Positions 25,140 through 32,843 of a stretch of DNA of 44,855 nt are shown here, one piece after another. Below the pieces are notes generated by a model. That model had not been told where the DNA came from and did not search any database. It saw only the letters and a list, made by a program, of their open reading frames with translations. A program made the position numbers and the translations under genes. The number at the start of each line of letters is the position of its first letter. Within the stretch, counting starts at the first letter, position 1. The DNA is from a phage: the NCBI GenBank assembly GCA_012164735.1, contig GCA_012164735.1_4544.1. The stretch is one strand, 5' to 3'.

Positions 25140-25747
25140 CCACATTTAAATTGTACGGCGTCTTAGGACGTCGTTTTGGTAAAGTGCATAAGCTGGACTG
25201 CTTCACACCTGGCGAGGGTATCACCGGCCTATGCGTGAAGTTGCCAGGCTTACAGGACTTTCTAATGTCGGCCCACCTGGAAAACATGATGTTCAAGGTG
25301 CGCAAGGGTAATCACACAATGACCGGCTACGACGAGTTGGGTGAGTTCCACGGCGACCGCGTAGTTACCATCGCGCCGGTTATGACTGGTGCTAAAAGCG
25401 GACTTGGACAATTGCTGGCTGGCGTAGCTATCGTGGTGGCGTCGTTCTACACTGGCGGGCTTGCCGCTGCCGCTTTCGGGGCTTCCGCTGCGACCGCCGC
25501 CGCTATCGGAACGGCGACGTTTTCGTTCGGTATGTCGCTTGCGCTGGGCGGCGCTATGCAATTGCTGTCACCGCAACCGAAAGGATTGCAGACACGGCAG
25601 GACGTGGATAACAAGGCGTCGTATGCGTTCGGCGGGCCGGTAAACACGACCGCGCAAGGCACAGCACTTGGTGTATTATGGGGCGAGCGTGAGATCGGCG
25701 GCGCTATTATTTCAGCCGGAATTGTAACCGAGGATTTGAACGAATGA
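25130..25747 (+). CDS. Tail assembly protein (lambda I-like)
   Basis: 205 aa with Gly/Ala-rich hydrophobic C-terminal half; synteny. Confidence 0.7.
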   Translation: MAMTTFKLYGVLGRRFGKVHKLDCFTPGEGITGLCVKLPGLQDFLMSAHLENMMFKVRKGNHTMTGYDELGEFHGDRVVTIAPVMTGAKSGLGQLLAGVAIVVASFYTGGLAAAAFGASAATAAAIGTATFSFGMSLALGGAMQLLSPQPKGLQTRQDVDNKASYAFGGPVNTTAQGTALGVLWGEREIGGAIISAGIVTEDLNE

Positions 25748-28700
25748 CGATTATCTACGACGTCACGGGCCATAAAGGCGGCGGTGGCAAACAGCACACC
25801 CCACAGGAGACGCCTGATAGCCTGCATTCGCTGGCTAAAATCCGCATCTTGCTCGCACTGGGCGAGGGCGAATTTGAAGGCATCCCCGACCCTAACGAAT
25901 TACGGCAGCGTGTATACCTGGACGGCACACCGATCCAGAACGCCGACCTGTCGGATAACTTCCCCGGCGCGCGCGTGGAGTTCCGCCCCGGCACGCAGCA
26001 CCAGGATGTGATTCACGGTTTTTCAGCGGTGGAAAGCGAGCAAACAGTAGGCGTAAAACTGGAACAGGGACAGCCGTGGGTCCGCCAGATTTCGGACACC
26101 AGTCTGGACGCGGTGCGTATTCGAATCGGTATTCCGGCCCTGTACACCAACGAAGATAACGGCGACCTGGTGGGCGGGCGCATCGACTATAAAATCGTTG
26201 TGTATACAGATAACGCCGATCCGCGCGAGTTCACATTCGCTGCCGTTGGTAAAACAATGTCGCTGTACGAGCGAGATCACCGCATCGAATTACCGTCTAA
26301 CGTTAACACCGGCTGGCGCGTGGAGGTGATCCGCACAACGGCAGACTCCACATCGGCGAAAGTGGTCAACGATATCCAGGTACAATCCATTACTGAGATT
26401 ATCGACGCCCGCCTGCGATACCCGCTAACCGCGCTGTTGTTCGTGGAGTTCGATGCTAAGGCGTTCCAGAACATCCCGCGTGTGTCCATCAAGTGCAAAG
26501 GCCGCAAAGTGCTGGTCCCGAACAACTATGACCCCGTGAATCATACCTATTCTGGTAACTGGGACGGCACATTTAAACGCGCCTGGACGGATAACCCTGC
26601 GTGGCACTGGTACGATATTTGTATTACTGAGCGCTTCGGCCTCGGTCGTCGTGTCAAACCACAAATGCTAAACCGTTACGCGCTCTACCAGATTGCGCAG
26701 CGCTGCGACCAGATGGTCAGTGACGGCAACGGCGGTCAGGAAATCCGATTTAAGAATGATATGTACATTCAATCGCAGACCGACGCCTGGACCGTGCTGA
26801 AGGATTTAGCGGCTATCTTTGCCGGTATGACCTGGTGGGGCAACCAGATGCTGAATATCGTCAGTGATCAGCCGGTCGCAGCGGTATCGCATACTATCAC
26901 CAACGCCTCGGTTATTGATGGTCGATTCGACTACGCATCGGGGAGCCAGAAAACTCGGTATTCCACGTTCTCGGTAGCCTACGGCAACCCGAAAAACCAT
27001 TACGAGGACGCCATCGCAACGGGCCAGCGTGTCGAACTGGTGCGCCGCCATAAGATTAACCGCCTTGATATTACGGCGATCGGCTGTACGCGTGAATCTG
27101 AAGCGCAACGCCGCGGACACTGGGCGCTAATCTCCAACCAGCTTGATCAGCAAGTTAGCTTTAAGGTTGGCATGGAGGGGTTATTCTTTATTCCGGGGAG
27201 CGTAGTCGCGATCGCAGATACTAACATTTCTGGCGGCTTCGAGACACGCGGCGGACGTCTGTTGTCAGATCCGGGCACGCGCACCGTGCTGAACACGGAC
27301 AGCGAAATCACGTTCCGCCCTGGCGATAAATTCCTGGTGCGCACCGATAGCGGTAATGTGGAGACTCGCGAGATTGCCAGCGTCAACGGCAACCAGGTCA
27401 CGCTAAAAACCGCACTGGACGCCGACCCAATTCCTGATCAGCCGTTTTGCGTTGATGGCGATGATATCCAGTTGCAGAAGTTCCGCATCACCGACCTGGA
27501 ATATGACGACGCTACCAGCACTTTCTCGGTGCGCGGGATTGAGTACAATGACAGCAAATATGATGCCGTTGATAATGGCGCGCGTCTTGATCCGGGTATC
27601 TTCACGCAAGTGCCGGACGGTGTAATGAAGGGGCCAGAATCCGTTACCATCACCCCGTCGCAGATCTCATCACAAGGCCAGCTAATCACCAACGTGGATA
27701 TTGTTTTTCCGCCGGTGAAGGATGCCGTTGTGTACGAAATCCAGTGGCGACGTACCAGCTTGCAGAATCTGGAAATCCAGTGGGGCAACGACTGGGTTAA
27801 CATCCCCCGCACGGCGTCGAATGGTGCGCATATCCCGAACGTGTTTTCTGGTAACTACCAGGCACGCGTCCGCGCTATCGGTATGGGCGAGATTTCATCC
27901 CCGTGGGTGTCGTCCGCCATCACGCCGGTGGAGGGTCGTCTTGGTGGGCTTAACGCGCCTATCATCACCAACGCGATTTCGGGCCTTCACCAAATTTTGT
28001 GGAAGTGGAATCACAACAACGCCGCAACGGATATTTCGTATACCGAGCTTGAAGTACGCAAGCTGGGCGAAACGGAATGGAAATTCCTAACCAACGTCCC
28101 ATATCCGGGGTCGGACTATGCGCAAACGTCGCTGGAGTTCGGGGTCTACCAGCAGTTGCGCGCACGCGTAGCGGATAAAATCGGCAACCTGTCAGACTGG
28201 TCCGATCCGTTCGACGGGCAGGTGAGTGACAAAGTTGACGAGTACATGCAGGGGCTTGATGACGAGTTCTTGACTTCCGAGGACGGTAAACACTTCCAGG
28301 AAGCAATCGACACCATTCCGCAAGGCATCTATGAGTCAATGCTTACGGACGCCCAGCAGTTATTCAACGCCCGCGCCGAGTATAAAGGGATTTATGCAGA
28401 AATTACGGTGGCGTATAACGTGGCGGCGGACGCTCACGAAGCCGTAGCGCAACTGGAAACGTTAATCGGCACGCGCCTTGACGACGCCGAAGCGTCAATC
28501 CACACGTTGCAGACCGCGCAAAGCACGCATGAGCAAGCATTCGCCCAGTACCAACAAACTGTTGCCGCTAAGTTCGGGGAGCAGGAAGCTGCCATCCAGC
28601 AGGTACAAACGGCAACGGCAGACGTAGCGGGCGCGCTGGCGGAGTATAAGACCCAGGTCGCGGCACAGTTCGGTCAGCAGTCCGCAGCTATCGAGCAGAA

Positions 28701-29190
28701 GATGACGTCCTCGTTTAACCATGCTGGCGGTAGCGCCACATACAGCCTTAAGGCTGGCGTGACGTATAACGGGACTTACTATGATGCCGGTATGCAGCTT
28801 TCCGTCGTGGCGGAAGGTGGCGCGGTTAAATCACGCATCGCGTTCAAGGCGGACCAGTTCTACATCATGCACCCATCTAACGGGTCGCTCTCGTCCGCGT
28901 TTATCGTTGACGGCGGGCAGGTGTATATTGACACGGCACGCATCAAGAACGCGTCTATTAACTTCGCGCAGATCACGGACACGCTGCAATCCAATAACTG
29001 GAATCCAGGTAACAGCGGCTGGCGTATCGCGAAGGATGGCGGGGCGGAGTTCAACAACGTTACGGTACGCGGCAACTTGTTCGCAACTACGGGTAACTTT
29101 GGATTCTCCGGCGGGTCAGTGACTATCGACGCAACGGGCGTCAACGTGCCATTACCTGGAGGGGGCAGGGTGAAAGTCGGGACGTGGTAA
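25744..29190 (+). CDS. Tail tip / host specificity protein (lambda J-like central fiber)
   Basis: 1148 aa following the I-like gene. Confidence 0.85.
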   Translation: MTIIYDVTGHKGGGGKQHTPQETPDSLHSLAKIRILLALGEGEFEGIPDPNELRQRVYLDGTPIQNADLSDNFPGARVEFRPGTQHQDVIHGFSAVESEQTVGVKLEQGQPWVRQISDTSLDAVRIRIGIPALYTNEDNGDLVGGRIDYKIVVYTDNADPREFTFAAVGKTMSLYERDHRIELPSNVNTGWRVEVIRTTADSTSAKVVNDIQVQSITEIIDARLRYPLTALLFVEFDAKAFQNIPRVSIKCKGRKVLVPNNYDPVNHTYSGNWDGTFKRAWTDNPAWHWYDICITERFGLGRRVKPQMLNRYALYQIAQRCDQMVSDGNGGQEIRFKNDMYIQSQTDAWTVLKDLAAIFAGMTWWGNQMLNIVSDQPVAAVSHTITNASVIDGRFDYASGSQKTRYSTFSVAYGNPKNHYEDAIATGQRVELVRRHKINRLDITAIGCTRESEAQRRGHWALISNQLDQQVSFKVGMEGLFFIPGSVVAIADTNISGGFETRGGRLLSDPGTRTVLNTDSEITFRPGDKFLVRTDSGNVETREIASVNGNQVTLKTALDADPIPDQPFCVDGDDIQLQKFRITDLEYDDATSTFSVRGIEYNDSKYDAVDNGARLDPGIFTQVPDGVMKGPESVTITPSQISSQGQLITNVDIVFPPVKDAVVYEIQWRRTSLQNLEIQWGNDWVNIPRTASNGAHIPNVFSGNYQARVRAIGMGEISSPWVSSAITPVEGRLGGLNAPIITNAISGLHQILWKWNHNNAATDISYTELEVRKLGETEWKFLTNVPYPGSDYAQTSLEFGVYQQLRARVADKIGNLSDWSDPFDGQVSDKVDEYMQGLDDEFLTSEDGKHFQEAIDTIPQGIYESMLTDAQQLFNARAEYKGIYAEITVAYNVAADAHEAVAQLETLIGTRLDDAEASIHTLQTAQSTHEQAFAQYQQTVAAKFGEQEAAIQQVQTATADVAGALAEYKTQVAAQFGQQSAAIEQKMTSSFNHAGGSATYSLKAGVTYNGTYYDAGMQLSVVAEGGAVKSRIAFKADQFYIMHPSNGSLSSAFIVDGGQVYIDTARIKNASINFAQITDTLQSNNWNPGNSGWRIAKDGGAEFNNVTVRGNLFATTGNFGFSGGSVTIDATGVNVPLPGGGRVKVGTW

Positions 29191-29196
29191 ATGAGA

Positions 29197-29219
29197 AGGG
29201 GCCATCCGGCCCCTTTTTT
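29197..29219. terminator. Bidirectional terminator between J-like gene and the minus-strand cassette
   Basis: Stem aggggcc/ggcccct, loop atcc, T6. Confidence 0.6.
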
Positions 29220-30183
29220 AATAGATATTAGGAATGACGAGTAACGGGGTGGGTACGGCAATATTTTTGCCCGGCATTTGGAATTGCTGCCGTGAGTAGT
29301 TGCCAATAACGCGGTTTTTAGCGATGCGCACATTATTACCCGCCATTCGTATCCCGTTCATGCGCACATGGTTATAGCCGCTGTTGTTCTCAATGAGCGC
29401 ACCGGTATATGAAAGCTGGATCAGACTATTACCGATGTGCTGGTCGCCGCCACCGATATTAATCGTGCGGTCGTAGACAAACGGCTTGTTTACCGTCGAG
29501 AACGTGACCTGCCCCTGGTTGTTAGTCATGGTGATACCGGTCCCCGGTGAGGGCGGCGTATTGTTGAATATCACCAGGTCCATATCAACGGCAGCGCCTA
29601 CGTCGTCAATCCCGCCATAGGACGCATTACGGACAATGATACTTCCGCCATCGAAGCCAACCGATACGTTGCCGTCGTCCCAGCGCGCGAACGGGACACC
29701 GCCGACGGGAAGCGGCATACTTCCGTTTACATGCACGCGCTGCGCATATCGGCAGGTCATTAGCCGTGCGACGTTGGATATTGCGGTGAAGTCCGTTGCG
29801 TTAGCTACCAGTAAGCCCGCATTGCGTGACCCCACCGGCAGCACTTCCATAATCACCCCGCCCCATGTTGGAAGCCCGCTGTATGCGTTATAGGCATCCT
29901 CACCGCGCAAGGTGATTCCGCCATCCCCGTTACGTTGTATCGACGTCACATAAAACGGGTCTGGCAAGACCAGGGTCTGGTCGAATACTTCCATCACTTC
30001 TACCGGATTAGTTAGGGCAACGACCAGTTCGGACCCCGGTGTCAGCGGTGTGTTAATGGTCAGCGTCTTGTCAGACTGACAGCGCTGATTAAAGGTAGTG
30101 CAGAACGACGGAGCGCGAAGGCCCGCGGTTATCTCCATGACAGGTCTACCGTCGTTGTAGTCGATAAGTATTCCAGCACCCAT
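29218..30183 (-). CDS. Hypothetical Gly/Asn-rich beta-rich protein (321 aa; ATG 30183 preferred over GTG 30192)
   Basis: RBS gggag 9 nt upstream of the ATG; no signal peptide; repeat-like beta-strand composition. Confidence 0.55.
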   Translation of the reverse strand: MGAGILIDYNDGRPVMEITAGLRAPSFCTTFNQRCQSDKTLTINTPLTPGSELVVALTNPVEVMEVFDQTLVLPDPFYVTSIQRNGDGGITLRGEDAYNAYSGLPTWGGVIMEVLPVGSRNAGLLVANATDFTAISNVARLMTCRYAQRVHVNGSMPLPVGGVPFARWDDGNVSVGFDGGSIIVRNASYGGIDDVGAAVDMDLVIFNNTPPSPGTGITMTNNQGQVTFSTVNKPFVYDRTINIGGGDQHIGNSLIQLSYTGALIENNSGYNHVRMNGIRMAGNNVRIAKNRVIGNYSRQQFQMPGKNIAVPTPLLVIPNIY

Positions 30184-30185
30184 TA

Positions 30186-30407
30186 TTACCACTCCCGTGA
30201 TTTAACTGATACAGTACCTGAGAAATTGCCGTCGCTATCGGCAGATAGGCCAGTGAAGCGCATGTCCACGCCTCCGGCAGGGACTTTTTGCCCGTCAACA
30301 TAACGCAACATGCAGCTTCCGTAAGCCACCGTAATGCAATCACCGTTGTTGCGTTCTACGGCACAACCGGACAAAAGAACAGCACAAATCATAATTAAAG
30401 TTTTCAT
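30186..30407 (-). CDS. Small lipoprotein (73 aa), candidate superinfection-exclusion protein (Cor/Llp-like)
   Basis: MKTLIMICAVLLSGC signal peptide with lipobox LSGC; strong RBS aggag; location between tail tip and fiber genes. Confidence 0.6.
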   Translation of the reverse strand: MKTLIMICAVLLSGCAVERNNGDCITVAYGSCMLRYVDGQKVPAGGVDMRFTGLSADSDGNFSGTVSVKSREW

Positions 30408-30487
30408 GTTATCATCTCCTATATTTGGTTGAGTTTTAGTATTACACCGCTCGATCAAGAATGCAACCAATTTATGAGGATTTAGCT

Positions 30488-32242
30488 ATGGCAGCGGGTA
30501 CACTATCCGTAACGAATAACAGCACCGCGGTGACTGGAGACGGCACAACGCTTACCGCGCTGAAGGCGGGCGACTTCCTGTCGCTGGTAGTAGGGCAAGT
30601 CCCTTACACTATTGCTATTGCATCCATTGAGAGCGACACCGCGCTTACACTGGCGCTGCCGTTCGACGGCCCAACGGCAACCGGCCTCGCATGGGATAGC
30701 GTGGCGCGCGATACCATGTCCCTTGCAACGATGGGCGTAACCGTCCAGGCGCAGAAAGCACTACGCTTGATGATCGCGGATGAGAACAACTGGCGCGCAA
30801 TCTTCGGCGACGATGAAGAAATCACAGTGACGTTACCTAACGGGCAGGTTATGCAGGGCATGTCATGGGGCTATCTGTCACAGTTGATGAAACAGATCGA
30901 CCCCGTTGAGATGCGCAACCTGCAACAACAAGCCGCCGCATCTGAAGCAGCCGCGCAAGGATTTCGTAACGAGGCTGAAGGATTTCGAGACGGCGCGCAA
31001 GGATACCGCAACGAGGCGCTCCAATTCCGCACCGACTGCGAAGGGCTGAAGAACGAAACGACAAACCTTCGCAACGATGCGCTCCAATTCCGCACCGACT
31101 GCGAAGGGCTGAAGAACGAAACGACAAACCTTCGCAACGATGCTAACACAGCTAAGACTGGCGCGGAGACGGCACGCGATCAGGCGCAGAACATCGCCGA
31201 CGGTATGGACCCTGGACAGTATATGCAGAAATCTGCAAACCTGAGCGATGTAGTGGATAAGGCGCAAGGCCGCGCGAATATGGGTCTTGGCACTACAGAT
31301 GCCGTGGAGTTTGGTGGGGCCACCCTCAATGGTCCCACCCGCATCAATGGCTCGTTGCTGTTGGGGCGTAACCAGTGGGATGGGTCTAGCTGGGGGGTCT
31401 ACGGACTACAATCGTCATTCGTCATCATGTCGCCGGATGGAGACTCCGAGCCGGGATTTTACATCAGGCCGCTATCGGGTGCGCCTGGGTACGCAACGTC
31501 GTTCACCTATAATCTCGCGATTAATCTTTTCAGCACCGGTGCTCGCATCAAGGCGGTTAACTTCGCATCCAGCACTACGACTATGGGATATAACGAGATG
31601 TGGTCACGTGCATGTTTCCAGGGGCAGCCATACGAAGCCCAGGCGGGGGTTGAGAACTACCAATCGCTTGTCGCAGGTACTTGCGGTACGGTATCACACG
31701 GATTTTACGGTGGCGTTGCGTTCGGCATGATGACTGCTGGCAGGGCTGGGTGGCCTGTCGGTCAGATCTCGATCGGCACGCAGGACAGAGCCGCTGACGG
31801 CACTATCGGATTACAAATGCACTTCCGTTTCCATGCATCCGGTAACATTACGTATACGGGGCCGGCGGGGAAGGGGTCATTCCAGCGAATCCCGGCATCT
31901 GACCGCAACATTAAGCATGATATTAAAGACGATAAATCCAGCACAGCATACGATAACATTCGAGCCATTCGATTCCGTAATTTCGTATTTAATGATGACG
32001 AGCAGGAGCGTATTCGTCGCGGGGTTATCGCACAGGAGCTTGAAGAAATCGACCCGCTTTATGTTAAGCACCGCGAATACCACAACATGGAGCTTAACGG
32101 GCCGAAGATTACGCGACTGGAGCTTGACACGACGCCGCTGTTACTGGACACAATGCGAGCGTTGCAGGATACGATTAAGCAGGTGGAGGAGTTGAAGGCG
32201 GAGATCGCGGCGTTGAAGCAGGCGGAAGAGTTGAAGAAATAG
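30488..32242 (+). CDS. Tail fiber with coiled-coil repeat region and C-terminal intramolecular chaperone (self-cleaving, peptidase S74-like) domain
   Basis: Start at ATG 30488 with RBS gagga; 63-bp perfect tandem repeat 31018-31143; C-terminal SDRNIKHDIKD motif from 31898. Confidence 0.75.
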   Translation: MAAGTLSVTNNSTAVTGDGTTLTALKAGDFLSLVVGQVPYTIAIASIESDTALTLALPFDGPTATGLAWDSVARDTMSLATMGVTVQAQKALRLMIADENNWRAIFGDDEEITVTLPNGQVMQGMSWGYLSQLMKQIDPVEMRNLQQQAAASEAAAQGFRNEAEGFRDGAQGYRNEALQFRTDCEGLKNETTNLRNDALQFRTDCEGLKNETTNLRNDANTAKTGAETARDQAQNIADGMDPGQYMQKSANLSDVVDKAQGRANMGLGTTDAVEFGGATLNGPTRINGSLLLGRNQWDGSSWGVYGLQSSFVIMSPDGDSEPGFYIRPLSGAPGYATSFTYNLAINLFSTGARIKAVNFASSTTTMGYNEMWSRACFQGQPYEAQAGVENYQSLVAGTCGTVSHGFYGGVAFGMMTAGRAGWPVGQISIGTQDRAADGTIGLQMHFRFHASGNITYTGPAGKGSFQRIPASDRNIKHDIKDDKSSTAYDNIRAIRFRNFVFNDDEQERIRRGVIAQELEEIDPLYVKHREYHNMELNGPKITRLELDTTPLLLDTMRALQDTIKQVEELKAEIAALKQAEELKK

Positions 32243-32245
32243 GAG

Positions 32246-32269
32246 AGGGGCCATACGGCCCCTTTTTTT
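32246..32269. terminator. Bidirectional terminator at the convergence point of the plus and minus transcription blocks
   Basis: Stem aggggcc/ggcccct, loop atac, T7. Confidence 0.65.
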
Positions 32270-32843
32270 AGTTTGAGTTTTCCCAGTCCATTTTGCGCCG
32301 CACCAGCGGGCTTTCGTAATACTCCTTTCCCTCCACTTCCACTAAGGGCCAGTCATTAACAATCACGTATGGCTCCGCGATATCCTCGATCACGCCGTGC
32401 GCACTATGTTGTCCGAAATCTACGCCCACCAGGATAACCCCAGCAACGCGACGAGTGAGATACTCGCGAGCGCAACGAGCCTCTACCAGTCCGCGACGGA
32501 TGCCGCTGGTGGCCTTAACCTCATAGGTCCAGACGGCATCAATCATGTGTTCCCGGAAGTCGGGACCGGACTTAACCTTGCGCTTACCGACCATGATAAT
32601 ATCGCCGCGGTCGATTGTATTAGCGCTAAACAGGCCGGTACGCATTAGCAAACCTTGCGGGATACAGCTACGCCCGCCCGCCTGCCCTTCGAGGTACATG
32701 CCTGCAAACATTTCGCCCAGCACACCGACGAGCCTGCTTTGCTTGCACGCGTCGGACTTATACCGCCACTGGTCAAACTCTATGCTTGCGATCATTGCCG
32801 CCAGGTGGAATTGTTTACCTGTTATTTCATATTCGCCGTACAT
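32268..32843 (-). CDS. Putative PD-(D/E)xK-type nuclease
   Basis: 191 aa; GDIIMVG ... TYEVK arrangement; RBS gaggg. Confidence 0.45.
   Translation of the reverse strand: MYGEYEITGKQFHLAAMIASIEFDQWRYKSDACKQSRLVGVLGEMFAGMYLEGQAGGRSCIPQGLLMRTGLFSANTIDRGDIIMVGKRKVKSGPDFREHMIDAVWTYEVKATSGIRRGLVEARCAREYLTRRVAGVILVGVDFGQHSAHGVIEDIAEPYVIVNDWPLVEVEGKEYYESPLVRRKMDWENSN

Follow-up and report, generated by a model that had tools for sequence, protein, structure and literature searches.

The lateral tail fibre gene and its neighbours

The window, that is, the whole 44,855-nucleotide stretch of phage DNA that was analysed, belongs to a Dhillonvirus-type Escherichia coli siphovirus. A search with its lateral tail fibre gene gave matches in 151 phage records, almost all of them from Escherichia phages of ~44 to 45 kb, with BMA1 as the best nucleotide match (92.8% identity). 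The order of genes is that of RuthEpting (Bas85), in which a gpJ-like central fibre is followed by two minus-strand genes, the lateral fibre, and convergent genes. The following features are referred to below.

25744-29190: gpJ-like central fibre (Pfam FNIII-A_GpJ, Phage-tail_3, and Phage_Tail_Tip)
29218-30470, minus strand: two genes between the central and lateral fibres, for a DUF6453 protein and a phage lipoprotein
30488-32242, plus strand: lateral tail fibre gene, from the open reading frame list; 584 amino acids from the probable start, ATG 30488
30488-30910, plus strand: N-terminal anchor domain (residues 10 to ~150), delimited by genus-wide conservation
30911-31267, plus strand: coiled-coil shaft, by similarity to the T7 gp17 shaft (7boz, E 3.4e-5)
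31268-31897, plus strand: distal tip, presumed receptor-binding domain (residues 270-479)
31895-31900, plus strand: predicted scissile bond Ala479-Ser480 (codons GCA and TCT), with position 1 of PF13884 on Ser480
31898-32239, plus strand: predicted intramolecular chaperone (IMC)/Peptidase S74 domain (residues 480-593, 114 amino acids)
31913-31915, plus strand: Lys485 codon AAG, predicted general base of a Ser-Lys dyad by its Ser+5 spacing
32063-32125, plus strand: predicted short beta-hairpin, counterpart of the IMC "tentacle" (residues 535-541 and 549-555; strands 81-87 and 95-101 of the AlphaFold2 [AF2] construct)
32129-32236, plus strand: predicted long C-terminal helix (residues 557-592; AF2 helix 103-138, pLDDT ~90)
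32246-32269, plus strand: intrinsic terminator-like hairpin AGGGGCC-ATAC-GGCCCCT with a T-run, read from the sequence

The longest open reading frame of the fibre gene runs from ATG 30461 (30461-32242, plus strand, 593 codons) and is probably over-extended at its 5' end; inspection of the sequence upstream of ATG 30461 revealed no GAGGA-type site. Because homologues, including Bas85 gp29, start with MAAGTLSV, which corresponds to ATG 30488, and because a GAGGA Shine-Dalgarno sequence lies at 30476-30480, 7 nucleotides 5' of this codon, ATG 30488 is probably the true start, which would give a product of 584 amino acids with Ser480 as residue 471. Residue numbers used here are nevertheless those of the 593-amino-acid frame, and starting at 30488 shifts all of them by -9.

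The fibre protein matches PHROG 1980, "tail fiber protein" (E 3.5e-134). Its anchor is 86 to 96% identical in all Dhillonvirus-type homologues, irrespective of their tips, and the N-terminal 141 amino acids show the same range of identity to more than 100 Dhillonvirus fibres. Residues 10-81 (30488-30703) are similar to the opening 72 residues of a PDB chain, 23gd_B, named "Distal tail protein gp20" (E 0.0025). A profile search relates the anchor to the N termini of Klebsiella phage depolymerases (7vyv and 7lzj) as well; these sequence similarities suggest a widely shared baseplate-docking module. The shaft carries a 63-nucleotide tandem duplication at 31007-31143 (2.2 copies, 98% matches by TRF), which adds 21 amino acids, or three heptads, in the form of two copies of NDALQFRTDCEGLKNETTNLR. 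At this site the close homologue P0007 is short by exactly 21 residues and P0006 by 14; nearly identical fibres thus differ in the length of their shafts. The motif KSANLSDVVDKAQGRANMGLG at 31230-31300 (residues ~257-280) matches a unit of which gp92, a short tail fibre (PDB 9zd7), has five or six copies, and it occurs in DT57C LtfA too. It recurs in fibres as a "joint" and here marks the border between shaft and tip, the point at which homologues change tips. The distal tip beyond it is presumed, by analogy with BASEL work on the genus, to be the receptor-binding part.

Of the two minus-strand genes, one encodes a 324-amino-acid DUF6453 protein (E 5.7e-118), and the other gene encodes a small protein of the Phage_lipoprotein family (PF24052) with the lipobox MKTLIMICAVLLSGC. 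A lipoprotein gene beside fibre genes may recall the receptor-blocking superinfection-exclusion lipoproteins, such as T5 llp and Cor, which adjoin receptor-binding genes. The hairpin at 32246-32269 has a stem of 7 bp, 6 of them GC, a loop of ATAC, and a T7 run; it lies directly 3' of the fibre gene's stop codon and meets that of a convergent 191-amino-acid open reading frame (32268-32843), for which no Pfam match was found. It is probably a terminator common to the two convergent transcription units.

The C-terminal domain of the fibre

Codon 480 of the frame is TCT (Ser) at 31898, and the peptide encoded from there, SDRNIKHDIKDDKSSTAYDNIRAIRFRNFVFNDDEQERIRRGVIAQELEEIDPLYVKHREYHNMELNGPKITRLELDTTPLLLDTMRALQDTIKQVEELKAEIAALKQAEELKK, comprises 114 residues, with the last sense codon ending at 32239 and the stop codon at 32240-32242; the domain therefore runs right up to the stop of this PHROG 1980 fibre gene and occupies the extreme C terminus of the protein. 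The original prediction had assigned a self-cleaving chaperone to these last 114 residues, beginning SDRNIKHDIKD, and translation reproduced both the coordinates and the motif exactly. It had also named a profile search against peptidase S74 as a check on the assignment, and residues 480-535 matched PF13884 (Peptidase_S74, "chaperone of endosialidase") with 44 bits (E 2.7e-11) against a gathering cut-off of 22 bits. The alignment covers profile positions 1-57 of 58 and places position 1 on Ser480, as does the isolated C-terminal piece when searched by itself (46.1 bits, E 6.1e-12). As a positive control, the C terminus of T5 pb1 scored 39.7 bits, with position 1 on the scissile Ser1264. The proposed identity with the T5/K1F type of chaperone is supported by a score above that of the T5 control and by a predicted fold that matches endoNF (3gw6).

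The isolated 114 residues match PHROG tail-fibre families, down to E 8e-43, and NCBIfam returned no specific model for the fibre, only weak SMC/Rad50 coiled-coil noise. In single-sequence searches of the PDB, the domain matched the C terminus of DT57C LtfA (E 1.6e-13), and neither T5 pb1 nor endoNF was found. A family-profile search of the PDB matched DT57C LtfA (8hqz, E 1.3e-47), in an alignment that extends upstream from the IMC into the distal part of LtfA, as well as MyRF ICA (E 4.7e-8), the phage fibre 8jov, the entry 6f45, and the GA-1 IMC (3gud). Pairwise BLASTP of the fibre against T5 pb1 gave no match, and the family HMM aligned only the 16-residue cleavage motif of pb1; as pairwise similarity beyond that motif is undetectable, it is the Pfam profile and the fold that tie the domain to T5 and K1F.

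Around the predicted scissile bond the fibre reads IPA/SDRNIKHDI, with Lys485 at +5 from Ser480; T5 reads INT/SDARLKNDV and is cut before Ser1264 (numbering confirmed on the T5 genome record). This spacing is that of the Ser-Lys dyads of the S74 family (endoNF S911/K916, T5 pb1 S1264/K1269, and MyRF S587/K592), in which cleavage occurs N-terminal to the Ser (Thr1263-Ser1264 in T5 and Pro586-Ser587 in MyRF) and is blocked by Ser-to-Ala or Lys-to-Ala mutations, as mutants of T5 pb1 and MyRF have proven and as has also been reported for endoNF. A homologue search with a 139-amino-acid fragment gave only 5 short proteins, and the full-length protein was used as the query. The resulting C-terminal alignment has 121 homologues with IMCs between 100% and ~25% identical to that of this fibre; in it, Ser480 and Lys485 are invariant (121/121), as are Gly521, Ile523, and Asp556; Arg519, Tyr534, and Asp563 are each kept in all but one. 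A precomputed PF13884 hit is present in every one of the 120 full-length homologues listed.

Two AF2 models were made, both of monomers, and what they show concerns the fold of the single chain. The first, of residues 270-593, is poor over the tip (pLDDT 35 to 55) and acceptable over the IMC part, and the only significant Foldseek matches to it were MyRF ICA and the endoNF "Intramolecular Chaperone" (3gw6). The second (m6e02a275adfc; residues 455-593, 139 residues, 66 aligned sequences, mean pLDDT 86) has two short helices, short strands, a beta-hairpin, and one long C-terminal helix, so that the alpha/beta body, hairpin, and long helix expected of an IMC are all present in the predicted structure. 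The helix at 557-592 is equivalent to the C-terminal helices of the T5 and MyRF domains, and by this analogy it should supply the trimeric coiled coil at the centre of the chaperone; that the fibre is a trimer we infer from the family. The earlier description of a "coiled-coil-like tail" holds insofar as one long helix is predicted; as to the coiled coil itself, hydrophobic residues occupy 5 to 6 of 11 a/d positions, a simple count that is not decisive.

Comparison of the homologues also shows how the domain travels. While the anchor remains 86 to 96% identical, many homologues have an unrecognisably different tip, and the identity of the IMC follows that of the tip: it is 100% where tips are at least 88% identical, ~76 to 86% where tips are ~45 to 55% identical, and 25 to 50% where tips are unrelated. 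Shfl1 and related T1-like phages of Shigella and E. coli have the tip (~54%) and the IMC (~78%) in common with this fibre but not the anchor. Because IMC identity tracks tip identity, tip and chaperone travel together as a single cassette, a pattern already noted by others in T5-like RBDs.

Proposed maturation and alternative readings

We consider it very probable that residues 480-593 are an S74-family IMC, which folds the fibre trimer and is then released by self-cleavage. By analogy with the family, three nascent chains would join through the C-terminal helix, as a coiled coil, and through the alpha/beta body; the bodies and hairpins would embrace the tip and set its register, yielding an interdigitated trimer. 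In a correct trimer, Lys485 would activate Ser480 for attack on the Ala479-Ser480 bond, and the IMC would most likely cut itself off the fibre. The 114-residue chaperone would then leave, and the mature fibre would end at Ala479 with its tip exposed, residues 270-479 forming its C-terminal portion. The original prediction of a mature end near residue 470 agrees with this, as Ala479 of the longest frame is exactly residue 470 counted from ATG 30488. The T5 tip, when its chaperone is left uncleaved, cannot compete for the receptor because binding is masked; release would therefore probably unmask the binding site here too. In Dhillonvirus, the O-antigen layer is reported to be handled by the lateral fibre first, with the central fibre then engaging a porin.

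If the domain is released in this manner, annotation should allow for a virion fibre ~114 residues shorter than the gene product, whose receptor-binding surface is exposed only after cleavage, and recombinant expression or host-range engineering must treat the tip and its cognate chaperone as a single cassette.

The best-surviving alternative, to which we give a slim chance, is that the fold is genuinely of the S74 type but is kept on the mature fibre, uncleaved or undissociated, as a distal cap or part of the tip. Cleavage is predicted by homology in this phage group, for which a search of the literature for virion mass spectrometry locating the fibre C terminus in a Dhillonvirus found only the proteomic table for EE09, with whole-protein coverage for a 606-amino-acid precursor and no peptide positions. 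Moreover, an Arg 14 residues before the Ser, contributed by the neighbouring chain, has been proposed as a folding sensor and oxyanion helper (R897 in endoNF and R1250 in T5), and the corresponding position in this fibre, within residues 455-479 (31823-31897), is Thr466; no homologue in the 121-sequence alignment has Arg in that column. However, it is hard to explain without a catalytic constraint why Ser480 and Lys485 are invariant in 121 of 121 sequences despite identities as low as ~25%, a retained chaperone would be expected to mask the tip as it does in T5, and MyRF cleaves without any stalk sensor, so that the -14 Arg is not a universal requirement. Arg456, Asp442, and Arg443 are invariant among the 28 sequences of the same tip type, and one of them might substitute for the sensor. 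It is also conceivable, though we hold it doubtful, that a compact IMC lacking the -14 Arg triggers cleavage as MyRF does, by its own coiled-coil trimerisation rather than by sensing the tip; if so, the IMCs of small-siphovirus fibres would be the phage model nearest to the MyRF mechanism.

Release of a self-cleaving chaperone would also leave no need for a separate fibre-assembly gene. That the fibre is instead folded by a trans-acting chaperone (Tfa or gp38-like), with the C-terminal domain only an autoprotease remnant, is very improbable. A downstream Tfa is used by many coliphage fibres, including BASEL examples, but here the stop codon is followed by the terminator-like hairpin and the convergent 191-amino-acid frame without a Pfam match, the same layout as after the fibre gene of Bas85, and the two upstream genes, for the DUF6453 protein and the lipoprotein, lie on the opposite strand; a search of the open reading frame list and Pfam for a trans-acting fibre-assembly gene adjoining the fibre gene found none. 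Finally, a chance or low-complexity match from a charged, helix-rich C terminus, with the region merely the end of the shaft, would fit the generic amphipathic helix of the last 37 residues and the weak coiled-coil hits elsewhere in the protein (CCDC90 and Fez1, E > 0.2), but it is refuted by the PF13884 match, the T5 pb1 control, and the Ser and Lys found in all 121 homologues.

Comparison with known fibres and chaperones

The K1F endosialidase (endoNF) chaperone is the founding member of Peptidase S74. It differs from the domain described here in that it sits on a tailspike enzyme and not on a fibre (3gw6), both the domain and its tentacles are far longer, and its Arg897 sensor lies in a triple beta-helix.

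The nearest relatives of the fibre are the lateral fibres of other Dhillonvirus phages (RuthEpting/Bas85 gp29, Oekolampad, GeorgBuechner, jat, and slur05), which occupy the same genome position, are built alike, with a coiled-coil shaft, a tip, and a PF13884 domain at the C terminus, and have the common IMC motif PASDRN(I/L)KHDI. Bas85 gp29 is 65% identical overall but only ~46% identical in the tip, and it lacks the extra 21-amino-acid shaft repeat. Members of the ortholog family in BASEL phages are named "lateral tail fiber protein," and UniRef orthologs already carry the name "Peptidase S74 domain-containing protein." Bas85 gp29 has been described with a T5-like tip and a C-terminal IMC domain (BASEL completion paper, PMC11990801), and the fibres of Dhillonvirus JLBYU60 have been described as having "intramolecular autocatalytic chaperones" (PMC12309495). 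An IMC on the fibre is therefore already known for the genus and is an ordinary feature of it; all that is new about the present allele is its distance from the closest database proteins, to which it is 90 to 93% identical.

The closest solved relative by sequence is DT57C LtfA (8hqz), the L-shaped fibre of a T5-like phage, to which this fibre aligns over the IMC and the tip strands before it, with Ser and Lys in register. LtfA differs in its length of 1076 amino acids, in being part of a branched fibre, in having Thr and not Ala as the P1 residue, and in a hairpin region ~8 residues longer. The IMC of T5 pb1 (4uw8, residues 1264-1396) has 133 amino acids compared with 114 here, its tentacle hairpin has ~40 residues compared with ~21, and it has Arg1250 at -14, where this fibre has Thr. 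The nearest structural neighbour is MyRF ICA (7dc3), which belongs to a eukaryotic membrane transcription factor and not to a virion protein. The compact domain and short hairpin probably explain why MyRF is the best structural match, and the likeness reflects a shared compact variant of the domain and no shared biological role.
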